Positions 1,871 through 33,351 of a stretch of 43,466 nt of DNA are shown here, in pieces. The notes beneath the pieces are model-generated. The model made no database searches and was not told the origin of the DNA. It was given only the letters and a program-made list of their open reading frames with translations. A program made the translations under genes and the position numbers. The first letter of the stretch is position 1; each line of letters begins with the position of its first letter. This DNA is from Escherichia phage fBC-Eco01: the sequence record OM272052.1; one strand, written 5' to 3'.

Positions 1871-3340
1871 ATGTTAACTATGAACGGTCAGAATCAGGGT
1901 GTTAAGACAAAACACCGGGAATGGCTGCATCACTTCGATAAATGGCAGAAGGTACGCCACGCGCTGGAAGGCGACCTTATTCGCTATCTGCGCAACGTCG
2001 GGAAGAACGAACCTGACCCGGTCTACGCAGCCCAGCGCCAGGAAGAATACGAGAACGGCGCTATCTGCTACAACTTCACCAAACGTACCCTTGCCGGGAT
2101 GGTTGGGTCGGTGATGCGCAAGGACCCAGAGCAGATTATTCCGCCTGAACTGGAGTACCTGTTACGCAATGCCGATGGTTCTGGTGTCGGGCTGTGGCAG
2201 CACGCGCAGGATACGTTAATGGAGATTGACTCGGTGGGTCGTGGTGGGTTGCTGGTGGACGCGCCGGAGACAGCCGCGGCAACAGCAGCAGAACAGAACG
2301 CCGGATTATTAAACCCTGTCATCGCATTCTACACCGCAGAGAACATCATCAACTGGCGACTGACCCGAGTCGGTTCAGTTAACCGTGTGACAATGGTTGT
2401 ATTGCGTGAGGTATGGGAATACACAGAACCCGGTGCAGAGTTCGAAACAAAGTTCGGCGAGCAATACCGCGTTCTCGATTTGATTGACGGGCGCTACCGT
2501 CAGCGCATTTACCGCTTCGACGCCGAAGGTGGCGCACAGGATGAAGTAATCGAGATATTCCCGGAACTAGGCGAACAGTTACGCGGTAAAATCCCGTTCA
2601 CGTTCATCGGAGCGAGCAACAATGACGCTACTATCGATGATGCACCATTGCTGCCGTTGGCCGAGCTTAATATCGGGCATTTCCGCAACAGCGCAGACAA
2701 TGAAGAGTCCAGCTTCGTTGTAGGCCAGCCCACTCTGTTCATCGCCCCTGGCGGGAATATGAGCATGGAGCAATGGAAAGAAGCCAACCCTCACGGCGTG
2801 CGCATGGGGTCGCGTTCTGGCCACAACATTGGCGAAGGTGGCAATGCGTTTCTGGTTCAGGCTGGGGAGAACAACCTCGCCAAGCAGAACATGCTGGATA
2901 AAGAGAATCAGGCCATCCAGATTGGCGCACAGCTTATCACCCAGACGCAGCAAATCACCGCTGAATCGGCACGCCTGCAACGCGGTGCGGATACGTCAGT
3001 TATGGCAACAATCGCACGTAACGTAAGTATGGCGTATACCGATGCGTTGCGCTGGGTGGCGGCGATGCTAGGGCTGCGTGAAGGCACAGAGATTGAGTTC
3101 AAGCTAAACATGGAATTCTTCCTGCAACCGATGACCGCTCAGGACCGTGCACAGTGGATGGCAGACATTAACGCCGGTTTGCTGCCAGTAACTGCTTACT
3201 ACGCTGCGTTACGCAAGGCGGGTGTAACCGACTGGACTGACGAAGACATCCAGAACGCTATTGAGGATGCACCACTGCCGTTGGGCGCTGCTGCTCAGGT
3301 AACGGGGGAGATTCCTCAGTCGGCGCAGCAACAGGAGTAA
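1871..3340 (+). CDS. portal protein
   Basis: 489 aa ORF immediately after terminase with RBS AAGAGGA; size and position typical of portal; followed by hairpin terminator. Confidence 0.75.
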   Translation: MLTMNGQNQGVKTKHREWLHHFDKWQKVRHALEGDLIRYLRNVGKNEPDPVYAAQRQEEYENGAICYNFTKRTLAGMVGSVMRKDPEQIIPPELEYLLRNADGSGVGLWQHAQDTLMEIDSVGRGGLLVDAPETAAATAAEQNAGLLNPVIAFYTAENIINWRLTRVGSVNRVTMVVLREVWEYTEPGAEFETKFGEQYRVLDLIDGRYRQRIYRFDAEGGAQDEVIEIFPELGEQLRGKIPFTFIGASNNDATIDDAPLLPLAELNIGHFRNSADNEESSFVVGQPTLFIAPGGNMSMEQWKEANPHGVRMGSRSGHNIGEGGNAFLVQAGENNLAKQNMLDKENQAIQIGAQLITQTQQITAESARLQRGADTSVMATIARNVSMAYTDALRWVAAMLGLREGTEIEFKLNMEFFLQPMTAQDRAQWMADINAGLLPVTAYYAALRKAGVTDWTDEDIQNAIEDAPLPLGAAAQVTGEIPQSAQQQE

Positions 3341-3346
3341 AGAAAA

Positions 3347-3376
3347 AGGCCCCACTACGGGGCCTTAGTTTTATTT
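3347..3376. terminator. bidirectional intrinsic terminator
   Basis: GGCCCC-ACTAC-GGGGCC hairpin flanked by A-run upstream and T-run downstream; lies between convergent portal and antisense gene. Confidence 0.6.
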
Positions 3377-3892
3377 AAATCTTGCAGGCATTAACACCAT
3401 AAAGGCCGTGTTTGAAAATTGTATTTTGCATCCTCTGGTTTGGTCCTGGAAATCGAAACGAGCAATTTCATTTTTGTATGCCTTAGAAATCTTGTACGCG
3501 TCTGCCAAATAGCGCAGAGTGAACCCTATACTATCGACAACACCCGGTGTGATGTGCGCCACGCGTCTCCAGTCAGGAAAGTTTCCTTCTACAACATCTA
3601 CCGGAAGTGTACATATAAGCGCACGATTATCGTCATAGAAAGATACACTGCCGTTGTCGTGGTTTACCTCCGCGTAGTTAAATTTAGAAGGCTCTCTCCC
3701 TTTGATGTCTATGAGAGTCCCTTTCTCAACGTTGGTCTTCACATTGTCGCAGAACAATCTATGACCGTCCGTAGACACTATCAATCCTTCAGGGTCTATG
3801 TAAAAAGCGTTCAAATAGTAGCGAACATCATTTTTAGCCCTGCATATTTTCGCCCCTACATACGCAGGGAAAGTAATTACTGTAGTAACCAT
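3371..3892 (-). CDS. hypothetical protein (antisense accessory gene, moron)
   Basis: 173 aa ORF on opposite strand to flanking head genes; RBS AGGAGA 6 nt upstream of ATG; own promoter copy and terminator; no family recognised. Confidence 0.6.
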   Translation of the reverse strand: MVTTVITFPAYVGAKICRAKNDVRYYLNAFYIDPEGLIVSTDGHRLFCDNVKTNVEKGTLIDIKGREPSKFNYAEVNHDNGSVSFYDDNRALICTLPVDVVEGNFPDWRRVAHITPGVVDSIGFTLRYLADAYKISKAYKNEIARFDFQDQTRGCKIQFSNTAFMVLMPARFK

Positions 3893-3919
3893 TTTGCGTC
3901 TCCTGTTTAAGTTAACTGA

Positions 3920-3948
3920 ATAGTACCCTATTATATTGGTGTCTGCAA
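3920..3948 (-). promoter_or_regulatory. conserved promoter element copy A (TTGCAG-N17-TACTAT, minus-directed)
   Basis: minus-strand reading TTGCAGACACCAATATAATAGGGTACTATTCAG; matches copies at 6064, 15132, 37795. Confidence 0.45.
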
Positions 3949-3992
3949 ATATTATTTTTATACGTTACACTGGCGGTACTATAGGAGGGCAT

Positions 3993-5036
3993 ATGAGCTT
4001 ACTTACATCTCTAATCAGTCACCAGATATGGCTGCAACGCGCCGCATCCGGTGAAGTGAAAGACCTTACGCCGTTTCTTCAGGAGATGCGGGACGAAATC
4101 AAACGGCAGGTGCTGTTATTCGGCGATGACGGGCGAAGCACCGCGCGACTGAATAAATTGTTACGTGACCTCGAAGAAGCACTAATGGGACTTACAGGCG
4201 ACTGGCAAACAAAGCTGACAGAAGACCTTAAGGAACTGGCGGCGTATGAGGCTGAGTGGAACGTAAAAACGCTGACCACCAACGTAAACGCGGAATTTGT
4301 TACACCTACCGCTGAGCAGGTATGGGCCGCCGCCGAGTTTCAACCGCTCTCATTAAGCGACAAGCCGGTTGATTTCACTAAGCTGATGTCGGGATGGGGT
4401 GAAACCGAAGTAGCACGTCTCGTAACCGGCGTTAAGATGGGCTTTGTGCAAGGTCAGACAACACGGCAGATTGTTAAGAATGTTGTTGGCGCTGGTGGGC
4501 TGGCGGACATATCCGAGCGTAACGCAGCTACGGTAATCCGCACCGCGCTGTCTCACGTATCCAACGAAGCCCGCAACGAGACGTACCGACAGAACGACGA
4601 CATCATCGAGAAGTACGAGTGGGTGTCAACGCTAGACAGCCGTACCAGTACGATTTGTAGGGCCAGAGACGGAATGACGTGGGAAATCGGTAAGGGGCCG
4701 ATGCCCCCGGCCCATTTTGGGTGCCGAAGTACCACGGCACCTGTAATCAGTTCAGAGTTCGACTTCCTCGATAAAGGTGCAAAACGTGCGGCTAAGGGCG
4801 CGGACGGAGGTACTCAGGTAAGCGCAGACACCACTTACTACGAGTTCCTGAAACAACAACCGGCGTGGTTCGTGGACGAAGCACTCGGGCCGACCCGCGG
4901 TAAGATTTTCCGCAACAGCGGTATATCGCCGGAAGAGTTTCGCGTAATATCTGTAGATGGTTTCGGGCGTCCGCTTACTATTAAAGAGATGGCGGAACTC
5001 GATAAACGTGTTGCTGATTATCTGAAAGGGGAATAA
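3993..5036 (+). CDS. head morphogenesis protein (phage Mu F / SPP1 gp7-like minor capsid protein)
   Basis: RBS AGGAGGG before ATG 3993; C-terminal motif TICRARDG...HFGCRS typical of the Mu F family. Confidence 0.8.
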   Translation: MSLLTSLISHQIWLQRAASGEVKDLTPFLQEMRDEIKRQVLLFGDDGRSTARLNKLLRDLEEALMGLTGDWQTKLTEDLKELAAYEAEWNVKTLTTNVNAEFVTPTAEQVWAAAEFQPLSLSDKPVDFTKLMSGWGETEVARLVTGVKMGFVQGQTTRQIVKNVVGAGGLADISERNAATVIRTALSHVSNEARNETYRQNDDIIEKYEWVSTLDSRTSTICRARDGMTWEIGKGPMPPAHFGCRSTTAPVISSEFDFLDKGAKRAAKGADGGTQVSADTTYYEFLKQQPAWFVDEALGPTRGKIFRNSGISPEEFRVISVDGFGRPLTIKEMAELDKRVADYLKGE

Positions 5037-5497
5037 TGATGGGCTTTTTCAAAGTAACCGATGTACCGTCGCGTCGCGTAGTCCAGTACGCCCGCGTGTC
5101 AGGCTCCGGCGAGAACGTGACCTACGTTGAAGATGAAAGTGTACTGGGTACACCTGTAGACGAGATGCCGTATGCAGATAAAACCGGTATTGCGCTACCG
5201 GCGGCGGGGATGCTTTACGAGATTCCGTATCTGGCAGACGCTGGTGACGTGTATTTCTCTGTGCAACCGAAAGACACCGAGCTGGTCGACGGTAGCGCCA
5301 CCATCACCGTCGAAGTTAAGGCAGGTAAAGCGCCGTATGTACTGACCTGGTACAAAGACGGGAAGGAAGTGGTGAACGCCCCGGAAGAGGCTCTGTCTCT
5401 GACTGTTAATGCGGCTGGTGAATACTTCGTTAAAGTTACTGATGCTGATGGGGTAGAGGCGGTAAGCAAGGCGGCGAAGGTTACTAAGCCAGAATGA
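5036..5497 (+). CDS. hypothetical protein, possible Ig-like capsid decoration protein
   Basis: 153 aa, start overlaps upstream stop; beta-rich C-terminal segment resembling Ig-like domains; followed by terminator. Confidence 0.5.
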   Translation: MMGFFKVTDVPSRRVVQYARVSGSGENVTYVEDESVLGTPVDEMPYADKTGIALPAAGMLYEIPYLADAGDVYFSVQPKDTELVDGSATITVEVKAGKAPYVLTWYKDGKEVVNAPEEALSLTVNAAGEYFVKVTDADGVEAVSKAAKVTKPE

Positions 5498-5501
5498 TAA
5501 A

Positions 5502-5528
5502 AGGCCCCGTTAAGGGGCTTTATTTTTA
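5502..5528 (+). terminator. intrinsic terminator
   Basis: GGCCCC-GTTAA-GGGGC hairpin followed by TTTATTTTTAT. Confidence 0.5.
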
Positions 5529-5593
5529 TATGAACATCGCGGTGATAACCGCAGCCGATACCCACAAAACAACATAAAACATCACACTATTTG

Positions 5594-5938
5594 TCATTTG
5601 CATTTCTCGTCGTATGTTTGTTGTAACTGCGACAGACGATTACCGGCTGTCATCTCGTCCATAGAAGGCCCAGCGCCTGTGTCCATAAAGAACAGCGGAA
5701 CAAACAGGAATGCGCCTGTAACACCGAGTACAACGTTAGTACCTATTTGCTTATTAACACGGTGCGTAGCGTTGGCTTGAGCTTGTTTTGTCGTGGCGAT
5801 TCTCGATAGTAACTGATTACATGTTGCCGTTGTATCCCCTGCCTGATAAACCTGTAAAGCTGGGTCTGGCAACGACCTTACGCAACCACTCAAACAAACG
5901 GCTACAACACCTGCTACTGCTAATTTAATATATTTCAT
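5594..5938 (-). CDS. putative lipoprotein (accessory)
   Basis: 114 aa; N-terminal signal with lipobox LSGC (MKYIKLAVAGVVAVCLSGC); hydrophobic segment near C-terminus; antisense to head genes. Confidence 0.6.
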   Translation of the reverse strand: MKYIKLAVAGVVAVCLSGCVRSLPDPALQVYQAGDTTATCNQLLSRIATTKQAQANATHRVNKQIGTNVVLGVTGAFLFVPLFFMDTGAGPSMDEMTAGNRLSQLQQTYDEKCK

Positions 5939-6036
5939 AGTTCGCCATTACCCGTGTCAATGTCACCAATACCACTACAAGCCCAAAGAAACATCACCGC
6001 ATCAACTGCAATTACTACTGAAATAACGACTAACAT
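5935..6036 (-). CDS. small hydrophobic peptide (33 aa), translationally coupled to lipoprotein
   Basis: ATG preceded by strong RBS GAGGAGG at 5 nt; stop TGA overlaps lipoprotein ATG (ATGA); sequence MLVVISVVIAVDAVMFLWACSG... Confidence 0.4.
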   Translation of the reverse strand: MLVVISVVIAVDAVMFLWACSGIGDIDTGNGEL

Positions 6037-6063
6037 GACGGCCTCCTCGGTTCGATAGAATGA

Positions 6064-6092
6064 ATAGTACCCTATTATATTGGGGTGCGCAA
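6064..6092 (-). promoter_or_regulatory. conserved promoter element copy B (TTGCGC-N17-TACTAT, minus-directed)
   Basis: minus-strand reading TTGCGCACCCCAATATAATAGGGTACTATTCA about 27 nt upstream of the small peptide ATG. Confidence 0.5.
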
Positions 6093-6134
6093 ACTATTTG
6101 TTTATGTATTCCAGTTATTCCACTCAATTGTAAA

Positions 6135-6163
6135 TGTTGGAATAAACTATTCGAATAGTTGAC
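6135..6163 (+). repeat. TGTTGGAATAA-N-TATTC-TTGAC motif copy 1 (candidate late promoter/activator site)
   Basis: TGTTGGAATAAACTATTCGAATAGTTGAC; a second copy at 6917-6940 precedes the scaffold gene. Confidence 0.3.
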
Positions 6164-6187
6164 TTTTCACCAAAAATGTGCTAAGCT
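6159..6187 (+). promoter_or_regulatory. candidate sigma70-type promoter (TTGACT-N17-TAAGCT)
   Basis: -35 TTGACT, 17-nt spacer, weak -10 TAAGCT; upstream of terminator-bounded leader and spanin genes. Confidence 0.3.
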
Positions 6188-6193
6188 CCACCT

Positions 6194-6394
6194 GAGCTTG
6201 TGAAGTATGAACAAGCGACCGCGGCGTGGCAGGTAACGGAGCCGGACGTTAAGTCCGAGTGTAGTTACGCTGACGCGTTCGGAAGGGCCATACTCTATTG
6301 CTTGTGTAAAAAGTAACTGGTTTACTGAGATTACGCCGTTTCTATGTTTAAATGATAAGGACTAGCGCCCCGCTTTAAGGCGGGGCTTTACTTA
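6194..6394 (+). ncRNA. candidate ~200-nt non-coding leader/sRNA ending in terminator
   Basis: no ORF longer than about 10 codons between the candidate promoter and the GCCCCGC-TTTAAG-GCGGGGC hairpin; followed by spanin RBS. Confidence 0.25.
6367..6394 (+). terminator. intrinsic terminator / attenuator upstream of spanins
   Basis: 7-bp GC-rich stem GCCCCGC/GCGGGGC followed by TTTACTTA. Confidence 0.5.
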
Positions 6395-11536: not shown

Positions 11537-11949
11537 TGGGCTACTTTGAGGACTTAACCAAAGCATTTGATGTGCCGCTGGTAGCCTTCGGAACAACCAA
11601 CGGCATCAAGGTCTCGCTTGAAAACATCGACGCGCCGACGTCAACCGATACGCCGTATCTGGCAAGTTACATGTTACTTGCGGATACAGAACAGGCAGAT
11701 TTGTTCTTCACAGAACAACGCTCAGGTGTTTATCAGGTCGACATTAACTACGCATCGGTGAAAGGTAGCGCGCCAATCAATAAAATGGCAGACTTACTTA
11801 ACACGGCGTTTAAAGCAGGTAAGTCATTTTCGCGTAACGACATCTGCGCCGAGGTTCAATCGGTTAGCCTGGGGCCGCTGATTGTAGAAAACGGATGGGC
11901 CAAACGACCATTGTCAATTAACTTTATTGCATTCACCAAGAGGCTGTGA
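11533..11949 (+). CDS. tail terminator-like protein (putative)
   Basis: 138 aa, overlaps neighbours by 4 nt, directly precedes major tail protein. Confidence 0.45.
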   Translation: MMGYFEDLTKAFDVPLVAFGTTNGIKVSLENIDAPTSTDTPYLASYMLLADTEQADLFFTEQRSGVYQVDINYASVKGSAPINKMADLLNTAFKAGKSFSRNDICAEVQSVSLGPLIVENGWAKRPLSINFIAFTKRL

Positions 11950-11951
11950 AT

Positions 11952-13118
11952 ATGGCTACAACTCCTTTTAAGGGCGCGAATACCGCGCAATTCTATGTGG
12001 CGGAAGTGACCCCTGGCGTAACACCGACTAACCCGGTCTGGTCGCCGTTGCGTAACACTGGCGGTGTTCCCGCGGTAACCCGCGATGCGCTGACTTCCAA
12101 CGAACTCGACGGCAGCAGAGAAACCACATCCATCCGCACCGGTAACAAACAGGTTAGCGGGGAGTACGCCATCGAACTTAGCTCACGTAGCCAGGATGAT
12201 TTCCTTGCGGGTGCTATGACTTCTACGTGGCAGGACGGGGTAGAGATTACGGGTGCTGAAATTACGGTCGCTCCAGCAGGTAAAACATTCACCCGCGCTG
12301 CCGGTAGCTTCATTACTGACGGTGTAGAGGTTGGCGACCTGATTGCATTCACCGACTTAACCGGCGACAACGCAAAACCGTTTATCGTGACCGCGGTCGA
12401 GGCGCTCGTAGTAACAGGCGCAGGCATTCAGCACACGCTGACAGCAGAGACAAAAACCAGTAAGGCTAAGACCGGGGATAAACTGGAAACCGGTAACGCA
12501 TGTAAGACGTTCTCTATCCTGACATGGTTCAAAGGACAGTGCGGGAACCCTGACGCGTACATGTTGACCAAAGGCGTGGAAATCTCCGGTTTTACTATCG
12601 AGCAGGCCGTGAACGCGATGGTGACAGGCAGCTTCCCGTTCATCGGTCTGAGTCAGGAAATTCTTACCGCGCCGCCAGCAGGTTCCGACTTCTCCCAGGT
12701 TACGTTCACCGATGAGCCGTTCTCGTCTGTAGATGTGTCTGTGTTCGACGGCTCTACTCCGTTGCGTTGCGATACTCTTACCATCACCAACGACAACGGC
12801 GCATCCGCTCAGTTTGAACTAGGGAACAGTAGCGTTGCGTTCGTGGAACGTGGTCGCGCAGCTAACACCTTCTCCATCTCTGGGAAGCTGTACGACATGG
12901 CGATGATTCAGAAGTTTATCAACGAGCAGCAGGTAGAGATTAACTCTATTCTGGCGGGGGTGAACGGGGCTATGTCTTTCAGTTTGAAACGCGCAGAACT
13001 TACGGCTGTTACGCCAGAAATATCTGGCCCGGAATCAATTACGCAAAGCATAGAAGGACAGTCCACAGGCAATCAATATCAATCTTCTATTGTTATCCAG
13101 CGTATCACCTACGCATAA
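11952..13118 (+). CDS. major tail protein (putative)
   Basis: ATG 11952 with RBS AAGAGG at 8 nt; 389 aa; last gene before terminator and tail chaperone/tape measure genes. Confidence 0.55.
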   Translation: MATTPFKGANTAQFYVAEVTPGVTPTNPVWSPLRNTGGVPAVTRDALTSNELDGSRETTSIRTGNKQVSGEYAIELSSRSQDDFLAGAMTSTWQDGVEITGAEITVAPAGKTFTRAAGSFITDGVEVGDLIAFTDLTGDNAKPFIVTAVEALVVTGAGIQHTLTAETKTSKAKTGDKLETGNACKTFSILTWFKGQCGNPDAYMLTKGVEISGFTIEQAVNAMVTGSFPFIGLSQEILTAPPAGSDFSQVTFTDEPFSSVDVSVFDGSTPLRCDTLTITNDNGASAQFELGNSSVAFVERGRAANTFSISGKLYDMAMIQKFINEQQVEINSILAGVNGAMSFSLKRAELTAVTPEISGPESITQSIEGQSTGNQYQSSIVIQRITYA

Positions 13119-13122
13119 AACT

Positions 13123-13147
13123 AAGGCCCCGAAAGGGGCCTTTTTCT
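13123..13147. terminator. bidirectional intrinsic terminator
   Basis: AGGCCCC-GAAA-GGGGCCT hairpin with A-run upstream and T-run downstream; ends both the + tail transcript and the - accessory operon. Confidence 0.6.
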
Positions 13148-13320
13148 TATTCCTTCAATTGCATAGGGTAGAAGTTAACGAGTTCTCCTTTATCCCGAAG
13201 CCGTGAATATTCATCTAACGCATCTTCCCGGCTACTTACAGCATAGATATCATTCCACTCGTCCCATTCTTCGTCATATACACGGATTACGTATATTGTT
13301 TTCATTACATTCTCACTCAT
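13147..13320 (-). CDS. hypothetical protein (accessory operon gene 5)
   Basis: internal ATG 13320 or 13305 preferred over track start 13362 to avoid a 50-nt overlap; acidic, W-rich small protein. Confidence 0.4.
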   Translation of the reverse strand: MSENVMKTIYVIRVYDEEWDEWNDIYAVSSREDALDEYSRLRDKGELVNFYPMQLKE

Positions 13321-13543
13321 CAATGTTGCTTCGATACTCCCGTAACTTCTCCAGACTTTCAATTGCTTCCGCTAAGTCGGTTCCGGTGTCCTTGTGCCCG
13401 CGAAGGCCCATACACAACAGCTTCTTCAATGCGTGCTGTAGCGCCGGGTCCCGGATATCGAAGGCGCGGAGCACATCATAAACATCTACTGTCATAGTGC
13501 TGCCGTGGGTATTTGTCATTGTGCGGTTGTATTTATTTGTCAC
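13313..13543 (-). CDS. hypothetical protein (accessory operon gene 4)
   Basis: 76 aa; GTG start with weak RBS; motif VDVYDVLRAF...ALKKLL; family not identified. Confidence 0.45.
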   Translation of the reverse strand: MTNKYNRTMTNTHGSTMTVDVYDVLRAFDIRDPALQHALKKLLCMGLRGHKDTGTDLAEAIESLEKLREYRSNIDE

Positions 13544-13733
13544 TGTTAACTCTCTTAAATCGGGCTATGCCTGACTCGTTAATGCTGCCTATTTCAAAGA
13601 AGCTGCGATATTTAGGCGAATACATTCTTACGTCGCCGTTCTCTAGGGCGACCCCTTCATATACAGCGCCTACTTCGAATCCATTTTTCTCCGCGTACGG
13701 ACTCACATCGGTGCATTCATACATATCTTTCAT
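13533..13733 (-). CDS. hypothetical protein (accessory operon gene 3)
   Basis: 66 aa; ATG overlaps upstream stop (translational coupling); RBS GGAG. Confidence 0.5.
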   Translation of the reverse strand: MKDMYECTDVSPYAEKNGFEVGAVYEGVALENGDVRMYSPKYRSFFEIGSINESGIARFKRVNSDK

Positions 13734-14860
13734 CCCAGCATCTCCGGTGAAATAGTTAAACGTGCGACCTCGCCATATTCGGCACTATAGGTAATTACAT
13801 TTGCGCTACGGCCTGACATCCATCCACCGCGCGAGGCGTAGGCGTCTTTAGCCGCCAGGGTGCGGTGTTGCTCAACAATCATGTTACGGCTTTCTACAAT
13901 CTTCTGGTGGTGCAGATGGCCTACGTGGGCGTAGCTGTAAACACTCTCGCCGAACGCTTTACGGAACTTGGCAATCATTACCGGTTCGATAGCGTCGAAT
14001 CGCGCCTTATGCCCGTGGTGAAAGAACAGCGTAGTTTTGCCGTGTTGGACCATCTTGTAAACATCCGGCGACGTATCGACGAACACACGCGGCTCATTGT
14101 CGTACAGCGTACTAAACATCTCAGCTAACCAAATCATTCCGCTTTCGTCGTGGTTCCCTTGCACGATAAGCAAGCGAACAGATTTATGCTTAACCAGCGC
14201 CATGTCAACAACACGTCGTACCATACGAATCATGTAGCGCACCAGTTTCTGATAGCGAGTATCGGCGTCCAATACATGACCACTCGCTGGCGTAACCGCA
14301 TCCAGACTATCGAAGTGCGCGAAGTCACCCAGCAGGTTAATAACCCCAGTTCCTGCATCTGGTGCTTTCTGAAACGCCGCATCGAACCATCGGGAGAACA
14401 GGTCTTCCGCAATCTTCATATCCCAGTCGTCGCCGCTCTCGTCAGCCCAGGCCAGCATACCAAGATGGAAATCAGATACCGTGTACAGATTGAGTAGTTT
14501 ATCGTCGCGTTTGGCTCGAGTCGCTTTAACCGGCGCAACTGGCGTAATCTCCGACTTCATTCCTTCGATCACGGCTTTCATTAACTCGACCTGACGTTCG
14601 GCGTCGGTGTCTGTCTTAACCCATTGCAACTTAGTGTTGCCGAACTCGTCCACCAGTGACGACGTTCCTTTAATTTTGTAGCCGTCCGGGACAAGATGGC
14701 TAACGTCACGACCGTGACCTACGCCTTTCTTCGCCAGCTTCGCTTTACGGATACGAATAACTCGGTCTGAGATGCCGTATTTACGGGATATGTCGATAAT
14801 CTTTGTTCCGGCGTTCAATTCTTCCTGTAACTGTTCGTCGGTTATTTTCTTCCGGGCCAT
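13730..14860 (-). CDS. HTH domain - calcineurin-like metallophosphoesterase fusion protein
   Basis: 376 aa; N-terminal helix-turn-helix-like segment (IIDISRKYGISDRVIRIRKAK); phosphoesterase motifs in order DFH, GDFAHFD, GNHDE, GH, GHLHH; RBS GAGGAAG. Confidence 0.75.
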   Translation of the reverse strand: MARKKITDEQLQEELNAGTKIIDISRKYGISDRVIRIRKAKLAKKGVGHGRDVSHLVPDGYKIKGTSSLVDEFGNTKLQWVKTDTDAERQVELMKAVIEGMKSEITPVAPVKATRAKRDDKLLNLYTVSDFHLGMLAWADESGDDWDMKIAEDLFSRWFDAAFQKAPDAGTGVINLLGDFAHFDSLDAVTPASGHVLDADTRYQKLVRYMIRMVRRVVDMALVKHKSVRLLIVQGNHDESGMIWLAEMFSTLYDNEPRVFVDTSPDVYKMVQHGKTTLFFHHGHKARFDAIEPVMIAKFRKAFGESVYSYAHVGHLHHQKIVESRNMIVEQHRTLAAKDAYASRGGWMSGRSANVITYSAEYGEVARLTISPEMLG

Positions 14861-14898
14861 GCTTACTTCCTCGTGTTTAGGATTTGTCCTATACTAGC

Positions 14899-15090
14899 TC
14901 ACTTCTCTTTGACATTCGAGTTGCAAGCCCAGATTAAAATAAATACCCACGGCAGCAGAACCCAGCCGAGAAACAGATTAGCCATGAATATCGCCAGTTT
15001 CGCTTTATGTCCGCGCATATGGGCCACTAAAAACGGGATAAAATAAACTAAAACGATAATGATTAAGAAGAACATAGTAATACCTGTCAT
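14899..15090 (-). CDS. superinfection immunity-like small membrane protein (Imm-like)
   Basis: 63 aa from ATG 15090 with RBS AGGAG; two hydrophobic helices with RGHKAK...NLFLGW...PW motif as I recall it for the Imm-like family. Confidence 0.5.
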   Translation of the reverse strand: MTGITMFFLIIIVLVYFIPFLVAHMRGHKAKLAIFMANLFLGWVLLPWVFILIWACNSNVKEK

Positions 15091-15131
15091 GGTGTAGCTC
15101 CTGTTTGAGTTAACATTGTTGGTGTAAGTGA

Positions 15132-15160
15132 ATAGTATCCTATTATGTTGGGGTGCGCAA
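15132..15160 (-). promoter_or_regulatory. conserved promoter element copy C (TTGCGC-N17-TACTAT, minus-directed)
   Basis: minus-strand reading TTGCGCACCCCAACATAATAGGATACTATTCAC, 28 nt identical to copy D. Confidence 0.5.
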
Positions 15161-15268
15161 GTAATGTGATAGAATAATTTTGCGCCTAGTGTCGCACACG
15201 AAAAGCGGGTGGTTCCCGTCTGGCGCATTTACCATTAACCTGTAACCTCTTAACCAAAGGATTAAAGA

Positions 15269-30607: not shown

Positions 30608-30623
30608 TCTGACTCCGGTAAAA

Positions 30624-30641
30624 AGGCCCAATGATGGGCCT
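30624..30641 (-). terminator. intrinsic terminator (minus-directed) between SSB-like gene and HNH gene
   Basis: AGGCCCA-ATGA-TGGGCCT hairpin followed on the minus strand by TTTTACC. Confidence 0.5.
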
Positions 30642-30661
30642 TAGTTAAATTGATTCAGATA

Positions 30662-31370: not shown

Positions 31371-31603
31371 CCCTTCCAGCCAGTTATTTTCTCAACTATG
31401 GTTATGTATACGTCAGGCCACTTCAAATTACGCACCCACTCAACTTCTTTGGCATACACCAACTCCTCTAGTTCTATTTTCCTGCACTTAAATGCGGTAT
31501 ACACGAAAAACGGAAGAAGCATTATGGCCAGCGGCAGTATTAGCGCGTGATAAGTTAAAAACGCCACAAAACCACCAATTACTCTGAACATTTTACGAAT
31601 CAT
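31367..31603 (-). CDS. small membrane protein
   Basis: ATG 31603 with RBS GAGGAGG at 7 nt and ATGA overlap; hydrophobic N-terminal half. Confidence 0.4.
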   Translation of the reverse strand: MIRKMFRVIGGFVAFLTYHALILPLAIMLLPFFVYTAFKCRKIELEELVYAKEVEWVRNLKWPDVYITIVEKITGWKG

Positions 31604-32841
31604 TCTAAATCCTCCTCTGTTGCCTGATTCCACTCAGGACGTTTGTCGTCTGCCGTTGCGACACATGGTGCGCCCGGCTTACGGGTAATGAAGTCTTTCA
31701 GTTCTTCTTCCGGTATAATTTTAACCGCTTCGGTAGGCGTCATGATAACTTCTTTAGTCAGCTTGTCGCCGTAGAGTTCTGCCACTTTCTCCGCGTCTTT
31801 CCACGCACGATTACCCGGCCTACCTTCAACCAGCTTGTACCCCGGAACTTTCTTACCGGAATGCAGCGAGGCAGCCATAGCTTTTTCAACCTTTTCGATG
31901 TGCTGGCGCAACAACGGCAACTTCTCATACTCAGCTACGAGTTGCTCCGGCGTCAGTTCCAGCGCAAAGTCGTCCTCCAGTTCTTCCGCCAGCACCGCGT
32001 TAACGGTTTTTGTACGCGCTGCGCACTGTTCAGAGAACCGGCACCACTGACAACCATCGACCGACGGCTTAAAGTCCGACGCTTTCAGGTTCTTCTTGCC
32101 GCGGGAATACGCATCTAACGCTAACAGTGCCCGTTTCCGCGCAAACTTAGCGAACAGTTCCAGACCTTCAACCGAGATGTCCCACTCCGACGCACCACCA
32201 GCGTACGGCTGGAAGATGACCAGACGAACCGTTGTTACGTTATAGCGTCGCTTGAGTCTGCGATAAACACCGAGAGCATAGAGCATAAGCTGCTTGTTCT
32301 CTTTCGCTTCGACACGATGTCGTCCTGTTTTCAGGTCGCCGATAATTAGCATGTGCTCTTCGGTGTTCGCCAGTTCCTGGACGGCAACAAGGTCAGCGGT
32401 TCCGAACGTCTCGACACCTTCGTAACCAGGATGCAACACCTCAGTAAGATTGACACGCATTTCCAGCTTAGCGTAAGTCGCTACATCGATAATCGCTTTG
32501 CAGTAGTCTGTGTACTTGCGAACCTGCTCAATCATATCCGCCGTAATCAGTACTGCGCCTTTCATCGGACTGATTAGCGCCTTAATCTGGCCTTTACCCT
32601 CATCCAGCACGTAGGCACCGACTTCACGTTCTAACGGCAACGCAGTGCCTTTGATGTACTGGTTTAAGTGCATCTCAGCTATGGTGTGCATGGCTGTTCC
32701 TAATACCGCGGCTTTACCTGACGTGTTAGGAATATCTTTTTCACAGGCCAGTGATGCCGCGCAACTTAGCCAACGTTTACTACTGGAAGGTGATAACAAT
32801 GAATGTTCGTCGTTACTCCCGCTTCTGCCCTTAATTTTCAT
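31600..32841 (-). CDS. DUF2800-like PD-(D/E)XK nuclease with Cas4-like Cys cluster
   Basis: 413 aa; N-terminal Cys (RWLSCAASLACEK) plus C-terminal CQWCRFSEQC arrangement typical of Cas4/RecB-type Fe-S nucleases. Confidence 0.65.
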   Translation of the reverse strand: MKIKGRSGSNDEHSLLSPSSSKRWLSCAASLACEKDIPNTSGKAAVLGTAMHTIAEMHLNQYIKGTALPLEREVGAYVLDEGKGQIKALISPMKGAVLITADMIEQVRKYTDYCKAIIDVATYAKLEMRVNLTEVLHPGYEGVETFGTADLVAVQELANTEEHMLIIGDLKTGRHRVEAKENKQLMLYALGVYRRLKRRYNVTTVRLVIFQPYAGGASEWDISVEGLELFAKFARKRALLALDAYSRGKKNLKASDFKPSVDGCQWCRFSEQCAARTKTVNAVLAEELEDDFALELTPEQLVAEYEKLPLLRQHIEKVEKAMAASLHSGKKVPGYKLVEGRPGNRAWKDAEKVAELYGDKLTKEVIMTPTEAVKIIPEEELKDFITRKPGAPCVATADDKRPEWNQATEEDLE

Positions 32842-32913: not shown

Positions 32914-33351
32914 TTATTCTCGAAATATCCAAGACCTATGAACGAGCTTTCTACTCTTATATATATATGCCCGCCACAACTTACGAGTTTTGCACCAGCT
33001 TACACCAGTAACGCCGCTGGTGTTGTTAGATGCTAAAGACATATTCTTGTGATTTCCGGCGCTACTCACCTTCCGCAGATTGGTAATTCGATTGTTTCTC
33101 CTGTCGTGGTCAATATGGTCTATTTGCTCTCCGGGCTTTAGTAAATCATCTGGGTTACAAAGGTCCCATATAACACGATGCGCTTTACGCACAACGCCGA
33201 GCACCTTAACTTGAGTGTAGCCATGAACGTCGTTGGACCCCGCCTCCTGTCCAGCCTTAACTTTGTCGGAAGGTGATATCTTCCAATACAATTTCCCGGT
33301 ATCAGGGTCGTAGTCAAAAACTTCATGCCAATTCATACCCTGTTCTCCCAC
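32914..33351 (-). CDS. HNH homing endonuclease
   Basis: 145 aa; motifs YDPDTGKLYW, AHRVIW, IDHIDHDRRNNRITNLR. Confidence 0.7.
   Translation of the reverse strand: MGEQGMNWHEVFDYDPDTGKLYWKISPSDKVKAGQEAGSNDVHGYTQVKVLGVVRKAHRVIWDLCNPDDLLKPGEQIDHIDHDRRNNRITNLRKVSSAGNHKNMSLASNNTSGVTGVSWCKTRKLWRAYIYKSRKLVHRSWIFRE

Follow-up and report, generated by a model that had tools for sequence, protein, structure and literature searches.

A two-domain gene in a leftward cassette of phage fBC-Eco01

A 43,466-nucleotide stretch of DNA from Escherichia phage fBC-Eco01 (OM272052.1; the whole stretch is called the window here) carries a leftward gene for a 376-amino-acid protein that joins an N-terminal helix-turn-helix (HTH) and a β-hairpin to a calcineurin-like metallophosphoesterase (MPE) domain, and it is the identity and probable function of this protein that we analyzed. 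The gene lies within a short leftward cassette that is flanked by the tail-tube gene (11946-13118, rightward) on one side and by the tail-assembly-chaperone gene (15269) on the other. From the promoter end, the cassette holds a superinfection-immunity (Imm) gene, the MPE gene, and three small open reading frames (ORFs) (Table 1). The MPE ORF starts with ATG, and in the sequence ATGA its stop codon shares bases with the start of the following ORF. The 3.1-kb region around the gene was approximately 96% identical to Escherichia phage Snoke and 90 to 98% identical to many other Kagunavirus (Guernseyvirinae) genomes, and the gene order here and in the other parts of the window that were checked followed the Snoke annotation.

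Table 1. Features of the MPE gene and its cassette (window coordinates; a dot marks features assigned to neither strand)
Feature	Position	Strand	Basis or remark
Bidirectional stem-loop terminator at the end of both the leftward cassette and the tail-tube operon	13123..13142	.	Also annotated in Snoke
Three small overlapping downstream ORFs (66, 76, and 71 amino acids), same cassette	13147..13733	-	
HTH-MPE coding sequence, 376 amino acids, stop codon included	13730..14860	-	ORF list; full-length match to PHROG 704
Binuclear MPE domain, residues 119-376	13733..14506	-	
Motif V, GHLHH, residues 314-318	13907..13921	-	
Motif IV, HHGH, residues 281-284	14009..14020	-	
Motif III, GNHDE, residues 235-239	14144..14158	-	
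Motif II, GDFAHFD, residues 178-184	14309..14329	-	
Motif I, DFH, residues 130-132 (D130, H132)	14465..14473	-	
β-Hairpin (61-70, 76-85), then helix (87-104), residues 59-104	14549..14686	-	
Three-helix HTH (modelled), residues 1-46, with basic third helix (DRVIRIRKAKLAKKG)	14723..14860	-	
Shine-Dalgarno sequence GAGGA, 8 nucleotides 5' of the ATG	14868..14872	-	Direct sequence reading
Imm gene (from its probable start), upstream in the cassette	14899..15090	-	Pfam Imm_superinfect, 3.1e-13, residues 61-102
Probable divergent-promoter intergenic region with one TGAATAGT-N3-CTATTAT copy (15129-15146)	15091..15268	.	

All five ordered motifs of the MPE superfamily, DxH, GDxx(D/H), GNH(D/E), H, and GHxH, were present in the protein, and the first-pass annotation, which was made from the sequence letters alone, had both located and read them correctly. 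The initial homologue search returned only relatives that were 97 to 100% identical, and a diverse alignment was obtained from a representative-library search; it comprised 141 representatives with 31 to 50% identity to the query. Residues D130, H132, G178, D179, N236, H237, H282, G314, and H317 were invariant in this alignment, and H182, D184, H284, and H315 were conserved in at least 90% of the homologues. This set contains the full complement of di-metal ligands (D130/H132, D179, N236/H237, H282, and H315/H317). Because the metal-ligand motifs are invariant at such low identity, the enzyme is predicted to be active and its catalysis to be under selection.

The AlphaFold2 model was confident (predicted local distance difference test score [pLDDT] of 93) and, as the first-pass annotation had anticipated, showed an MPE fold that matched solved MPE enzymes. 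A Pfam match had also been expected. The window protein scored below the gathering thresholds of Metallophos (22.2 bits versus 27) and Metallophos_2 (18.7 versus 21.5), but some homologues of the same family exceeded the Metallophos_2 threshold (25.1 versus 21.5 for homologue P0132). Thus, the low scores mark a divergent clade of the MPE superfamily and not a different fold, and by its motifs and fold the protein belongs to the calcineurin-like MPE superfamily even though the Pfam threshold is not reached. The family has conserved features of its own, namely, an extended loop that joins motif II to motif III (VTPxSGHxLDxDxR) and a C-terminal segment (EQHxTLAAxDAYA), and the GD-x-x-H spacing of motif II resembles that of GDLFH, which we take to be the corresponding Mre11 motif. 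Sequence searches of the window protein against the PDB, NCBIfam, and PADLOC gave nothing meaningful, and the only PDB matches, to the STIV B204 ATPase (E of 0.1), were dismissed as due to chance.

In the fold comparison, the small subunit DP1 of DNA polymerase D (PolD), a 3'-5' proofreading exonuclease, was the best single match, with a score of 15.8 over 213 aligned residues, followed by Thermotoga maritima Mre11 (15.1) and Staphylococcus aureus SbcD (15.0). Lower scores were obtained for LpxH (13.6), MJ0936 (13.5), further Mre11 and SbcD entries (12.4 to 13.5), GpdQ (12.5), and Icc/Rv0805 (11.9), and the protein phosphatases PP5 and PP1 scored 8.6 to 9.1. Hence, the branch of the fold that lies closest to the protein, if only modestly so, is that of the nucleases (PolD-DP1, Mre11, and SbcD). 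A Foldseek comparison with predicted viral structures returned many phage proteins that had been automatically named "DNA polymerase II small subunit" or "calcineurin-like phosphoesterase," confirming a broad and poorly named class of phage proteins.

The N-terminal HTH of about 50 residues that the first-pass annotation had described was borne out by the predicted fold and by profile matches. The region was ordered, not disordered: in the AlphaFold2 model, helices spanned residues 8-16, 21-28, and 32-44 (pLDDT, 80 to 95) and were followed by a flexible linker, beyond which the two hairpin strands were modelled at a pLDDT above 90 and led into the helix given in Table 1. The matches to the module included a mycobacteriophage immunity repressor, sigma factors, a small terminase, GcrA, Tc3 transposase, and the LuxR/NarL-type regulators StyR, EvgA, DevR, RhlR, DesR, and RcsB. 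A profile built from 55 N-terminal segments matched RhlR, GerE, and NarL with E values of 4e-4 to 2e-3, and individual family members matched Sigma70_r4_2 (2e-10), GerE (5e-9), HTH_8 (5.5e-8), and HTH_1 (8e-7). No significant Pfam match was found for the N terminus of the window protein itself. The protein and T1 ST16 fall into one subgroup, in which the first of the four helices of the LuxR-like form is missing. Residues 1 to 50 carry a net charge of about +7, with a strongly basic third helix, versus -6 for the catalytic domain. With a three-helix bundle, helix-turn-helix geometry, and a basic recognition helix, as in HTHs of the LuxR/GerE, sigma region 4, and resolvase types, the domain is, in the model, a real HTH, and DNA binding is predicted. 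Within the protein, sequence conservation is lowest in the HTH, and the hairpin residues G74 and W80 are conserved in at least 90% of the homologues. The HTH is duplicated in some longer homologues, and the hairpin also appears to be duplicated in some of them when the N-terminal segments are read by eye. No solved structure specifically matched the hairpin-helix element.

The PHROG 704 family and its annotation

The protein matched PHROG 704, "DNA repair exonuclease," along nearly its full length (E of 1.7e-165; residues 4 to 375 against profile positions 2 to 389 of 390). Homologues were found by tblastn in 2,039 of 50,697 phage records, or approximately 4% of sequenced phage genomes, and 1,954 of these covered at least 80% of the query; their hosts include Escherichia, Klebsiella, Salmonella, Vibrio, Campylobacter, Flavobacterium, Rhodobacter, Ruegeria, and others. 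When the representatives of 1.84 billion clusters, formed at 50% identity, were searched exhaustively with HMMER, 4,648 clusters matched at an E value of ≤1e-3 and 1,157 at ≤1e-30, nearly all of them 370 to 420 amino acids long. The core module that contains the exonuclease was detected in 508 of 522 Drexlerviridae genomes (PMC13164509).

The first-pass annotation had considered the fusion of an HTH to an MPE unusual. This label did not hold: 109 to 228 residues preceded motif I in all 141 aligned homologues, and the HTH-MPE form is the standard one in the family, so that the label reflected the lack of database access at the time and not the biology. The gene and its two-domain make-up are already known in public phage annotations, including that of phage T1, whose homologue ST16 (YP_003929.1; 377 amino acids) was 45% identical to the window protein across its full length, the HTH included. 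The closest annotated protein was the metallophosphoesterase of phage fFiEco03 (99.5% identical), and T1 ST16 and the Snoke and fFiEco03 proteins share the same architecture of HTH, hairpin, and MPE domain with no structural difference from the window protein. Names in the databases vary widely. The Snoke orthologue gp24 (QEG06970.1) is labelled "phosphoesterase" with an HHpred note to MJ0936, other orthologues are called "metallophosphoesterase," "DNA repair exonuclease," "phosphatase," or "oxidoreductase," and some identical proteins are named "winged helix-turn-helix domain-containing protein" by NCBI. The PHROG 704 name itself is a guess based on homology.

No match was found by blastn in 5,426 complete E. 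coli genomes, and only five plasmid records were matched by tblastn, four of which are 44 to 50 kb long and are probably phage genomes. Thus, as far as E. coli is concerned, the gene belongs to virulent phages and not to prophages. The gene and its architecture matter little in themselves, and what remains is the function of a family that is large, predicted to be catalytically intact, and nearly universal in Drexlerviridae, and for which no experimental characterization was found in literature searches; this makes it a worthwhile target.

Substrate and role of the protein

A nucleic acid substrate, most probably DNA, is indicated because the nearest folds are those of DNA nucleases. That this substrate is a polymer is suggested by the constancy of the DNA-binding module in the family; nucleic-acid-binding modules are a feature of MPEs that act on polymers (DP1, polymerase B subunits, and Mre11) but not of those that act on small molecules (YfcE, MJ0936, LpxH, and CpdA). 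The gene context points the same way, since genes of the polynucleotide kinase (PNK) type and genes for deoxynucleoside monophosphate (dNMP) metabolism recur around the MPE gene across lineages. In Kagunavirus relatives, the MPE gene is directly followed by a gene for an HAD PNKP-type 3'-phosphatase (PF25109, 1.5e-19) and then by one annotated as a dNMP kinase, and in Drexlerviridae that lack the SH3 gene, a polynucleotide kinase and a dNMP kinase most often come directly after the "DNA repair exonuclease" (PMC13164509). In Rhizobium phage 16-3, a gene for a dNMP 5'-phosphatase likewise lies downstream of the homologue. From these folds, domains, and contexts, we infer a DNA substrate and a nuclease activity, and the reading that we prefer, with a probability of about 45%, is that the protein is a DNA-tethered metallonuclease with a role in the DNA and nucleotide metabolism of the phage. 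The enzyme would be held on DNA by its HTH and hairpin module, and its di-metal centre would hydrolyze phosphodiester bonds in DNA, either as an exonuclease or as an endonuclease, with Mn2+/Mg2+ as the metal. The gene sits in a leftward nonstructural cassette within the tail-gene region, and a role in DNA and nucleotide metabolism is expected. Since a PNK-type 3'-phosphatase gene and a dNMP kinase gene adjoin it in relatives, we favour the breakdown or processing of host or damaged DNA, which would feed nucleotide salvage; degradation of host DNA specifically is one possible form of this role and takes up somewhat less than half of that probability.

Several observations weigh against a DNA-tethered metallonuclease. 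The protein showed no significant sequence similarity to characterized nucleases (SbcD, Mre11, and the nuclease MPE gave E values of 0.3 to 0.85), and full-text literature searches found no assay of any family member, the literature on the family consisting of genome descriptions and a survey of Drexlerviridae lysis modules. The MPE core is not followed by a capping domain of the Mre11 type, and a gene for a Rad50/SbcC partner is missing: none was found among the annotated genes of Snoke, and the large unassigned ORFs of the window are a helicase and the phrog_69 exonuclease. The latter is a separate exonuclease gene (31600-32841) that adjoins the gene for the single-stranded DNA-binding protein, and T1 has RecE and Erf, so the MPE is not a canonical recombination exonuclease. 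The PNK-type and kinase neighbours are absent from the window. Finally, the HTH could equally serve transcriptional regulation, and the phage SO-1 homologue is in fact annotated as a "putative transcriptional regulator."

The protein shares the MPE nuclease domain and its intact di-metal site with Mre11/SbcD, but its sequence similarity to them is not significant (E values of 0.3 to 0.75), it lacks their C-terminal capping domain and Rad50/SbcC partner, and it has an N-terminal HTH and hairpin in place of their C-terminal DNA- and Rad50-binding regions. It is therefore not a canonical Mre11/SbcD member. The functional interpretation in the first-pass annotation, a DNA-targeted nuclease or phosphatase, was supported in part. 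An accessory or proofreading 3'-5' exonuclease that works like archaeal DP1 with the phage or host replisome is suggested by the top rank of DP1 among the folds, but we consider it improbable. Archaeal DP1 has an oligonucleotide-binding (OB) fold and works bound to DP2, whereas the N-terminal module of the window protein is an HTH with a hairpin, and no DP2 homologue was found among the annotated genes of Snoke; the protein is not a PolD DP1 member. Additionally, the Kagunavirus gene is located away from the replication module, and family members are found in phages that have a PolA of their own (Kagunavirus) as well as in T1. No polymerase was seen in the T1 genome half from 25000 to 48836, and T1 is not known to encode any polymerase.

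The same gene neighbourhoods that favour the metallonuclease would also suit nucleic acid end healing, in which the MPE removes 2',3'-cyclic or 3'-phosphates from broken tRNA, RNA, or DNA, or trims their ends, alongside the PNK-type 3'-phosphatase and P-loop kinase of the relatives, and so counters anticodon nucleases or DNA-nicking defences. The direct succession of MPE, PNKP-type phosphatase, and kinase in Kagunavirus relatives, and the same order in many Drexlerviridae (PMC13164509), argue for such a role. The PNK-type neighbours are missing not only here but also from many other family members, however, and we regard both the activity and the partnership as rather unlikely. Bacterial Pnkp unites a kinase with an MPE-type phosphoesterase that is similar to the PPP-type class, but the fold of the window protein is far from the PPP-type phosphatases PP1 and PP5.

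A functional parallel is offered by phage T5, whose pre-early protein A1, a predicted metallophosphatase resembling double-strand-break repair and proofreading nucleases, is necessary and sufficient for degradation of the host chromosome, and whose A2, an essential DNA-binding protein encoded near A1, is needed with A1 for second-step DNA transfer (bioRxiv 10.64898/2026.04.02.716235). Kinship with A1 and A2 was rejected: profile-sequence hhalign gave only a 20-column match near motif III at 15% probability, and the N-terminal module gave no hhalign match to A2. A1 also differs in length (556 versus 376 amino acids). As a functional analogue, with the two functions fused in one protein, the A1/A2 pair is nevertheless plausible. 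A stronger form of this analogy, in which PHROG 704 is the fused counterpart of A1/A2, an HTH-guided metallonuclease responsible for destroying the host chromosome and for supplying dNMP salvage in T1-like and related siphoviruses, is speculative, and we think it unlikely. It would cover T1-like phages, Kagunavirus/Jerseyvirus, Dhillonvirus, Webervirus, and many marine siphoviruses, and, if it were true, the same nuclease would produce the m6dAMP alarm that is sensed by the Metis and PUA-Cal-HAD defences. The T1-like phage Bas12 is reported to be sensitive to PUA-Cal-HAD (bioRxiv 10.64898/2026.01.15.699771). The calcineurin-like proteins described in the papers on those two systems are host defence enzymes and do not belong to this phage family. 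Proof of a role in host DNA degradation or end processing would fill an annotation gap in widely used therapeutic and model siphoviruses and would connect the family to recently described defences that sense the products of host DNA breakdown.

Enzymes of the superfamily that act on small molecules or proteins were weighed as well. A nucleotide phosphodiesterase or phosphatase acting on immune signals (cyclic nucleotides or oligonucleotides), 2',3'-cyclic nucleoside monophosphates, deoxynucleoside triphosphates, or NAD, with an anti-defence or pool-adjusting function and the HTH as an accessory, would be consistent with the moron-like position beside the Imm gene and with the similarity to MJ0936 and YfcE. 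We give this little credence: retention of the HTH in all 141 homologues is hard to explain in such an enzyme, the nuclease folds rank first, and PADLOC, which models defence and not anti-defence proteins, gave no match. No MPE is known to us among the anti-defence proteins. MJ0936/YfcE and the Pseudomonas putida nuclease MPE differ from the window protein in being single-domain proteins of approximately 165 to 215 amino acids that have no HTH and lack the family's loop between motifs II and III. A Ser/Thr/Tyr protein phosphatase like lambda NinI is very improbable. Such enzymes belong to the same superfamily, and a relative in phage S134 is labelled "putative serine/threonine protein phosphatase," but neither the GDxxDRG motif II of lambda phosphatase/NinI-type PPP enzymes nor a close PP1/lambda fold was found, and by motif II and fold distance the protein is not a PPP-type protein phosphatase. 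The temperate Rhizobium phage 16-3 has both kinds of gene: three genes downstream of its homologue, p044, there is a NinI-like Ser/Thr phosphatase, and the dNMP 5'-phosphatase comes one gene later, four genes downstream of p044. Thus, a lambda-type protein phosphatase does not substitute for the PHROG 704 protein.

The resemblance of the HTH to LuxR, sigma region 4, and resolvase types, together with the SO-1 annotation, also fits a protein that is primarily a transcription or DNA-site regulator and whose MPE domain serves as a sensor or auxiliary enzyme. Its site could be the palindrome TGAATAGT-N3-CTATTAT, which is far more frequent in the window than expected and has one copy just upstream of the cassette. 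Such a regulator is nonetheless unlikely. The catalytic residues are invariant, so that enzyme activity is the selected function, while the HTH is the least conserved region; nothing ties the palindrome to the MPE protein, and further candidates, with HTH or Cro-like character, are encoded by the phage.

Neighbouring genes and repeated elements

The position downstream of the MPE gene, which in related phages is held by the HAD PNKP-type phosphatase and dNMP kinase genes or by an HNH gene, is occupied here by the three small ORFs. The idea that these are remnants of the PNK and kinase genes of the relatives was rejected, since BLASTP showed no similarity. The 76-amino-acid ORF (13313-13543, leftward) matched positions 150 to 220 only, out of 235, of phrog_2452 (E of 8.6e-37) and positions 171 to 237 of 246 of phrog_17613, "ATPase"; from these partial matches, covering the C-terminal third of longer phage proteins, it could be either an independent C-terminal domain or a fragment of a gene. 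In the relative vB_VIPECOTH07 (2148-3187), the "polynucleotide kinase" consists of only the HAD PNKP-type 3'-phosphatase domain (161 amino acids), and the adjacent 184-amino-acid "dNMP kinase" had no Pfam match. Together, the two might represent a split T4-type Pnkp rather than a nucleotide kinase.

The Imm ORF is listed with 109 amino acids (14899-15228). An AGGAG sequence precedes M47, however, and one relative annotates a protein of 63 amino acids; the true start is probably M47 at 15090, giving 63 amino acids and leaving a divergent promoter region of 178 bp. A scan for sigma-70 promoters around the cassette gave matches no more frequently than in shuffled sequence.

The 18-nucleotide palindrome occurred 12 times in the window with at most three mismatches, compared with 0.83 occurrences expected from shuffles, at positions that include 3917, 6061, 6152, 15129, 27124, 31345, 34181, 34225, 37809, 38975, and 41747. 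The sites that were mapped (3917, 6061/6152, and 15129) lie at operon starts or in divergent intergenic regions. In the longer copies, TTGACA-CC-TGAATAGTTAGCTATTATAGTT, an operator-like inverted repeat occupies the spacer of a sigma-70-like promoter. A GC-rich bidirectional terminator, AAAAGGCCCC-loop-GGGGCCTT, was present in four copies (3344-3375, 5499-5530, 13120-13151, and 30620-30651). Terminators and promoter motif bracket the leftward islands at 3371-3892, 5594-5938, and 13147-15090 inside the rightward structural operons, and the terminator-to-terminator and promoter-to-promoter spacings (2155 and 2144 nucleotides) suggest a repeated module.

Differences from Snoke were seen in other parts of the window. 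The rightward capsid-morphogenesis gene (3936-5036) encodes 366 amino acids, versus approximately 619 in the Snoke orthologue (3408-5267), which has an annotated 273-residue intein, and judging by this length, the gene in the window appears to lack the intein. A leftward ORF of 173 amino acids (3371-3892), which by PHROG is a RusA-like resolvase or processivity factor and is called "sliding clamp" in Snoke, precedes the capsid-morphogenesis gene here but follows the decoration gene in Snoke (5757-6278). A leftward HNH endonuclease gene (32914-33351; phrog_99, E of 6.7e-51) lies in the replication module just upstream of the phrog_69 gene, at about the place where Snoke has two small hypothetical genes, and may be a homing-endonuclease insertion.

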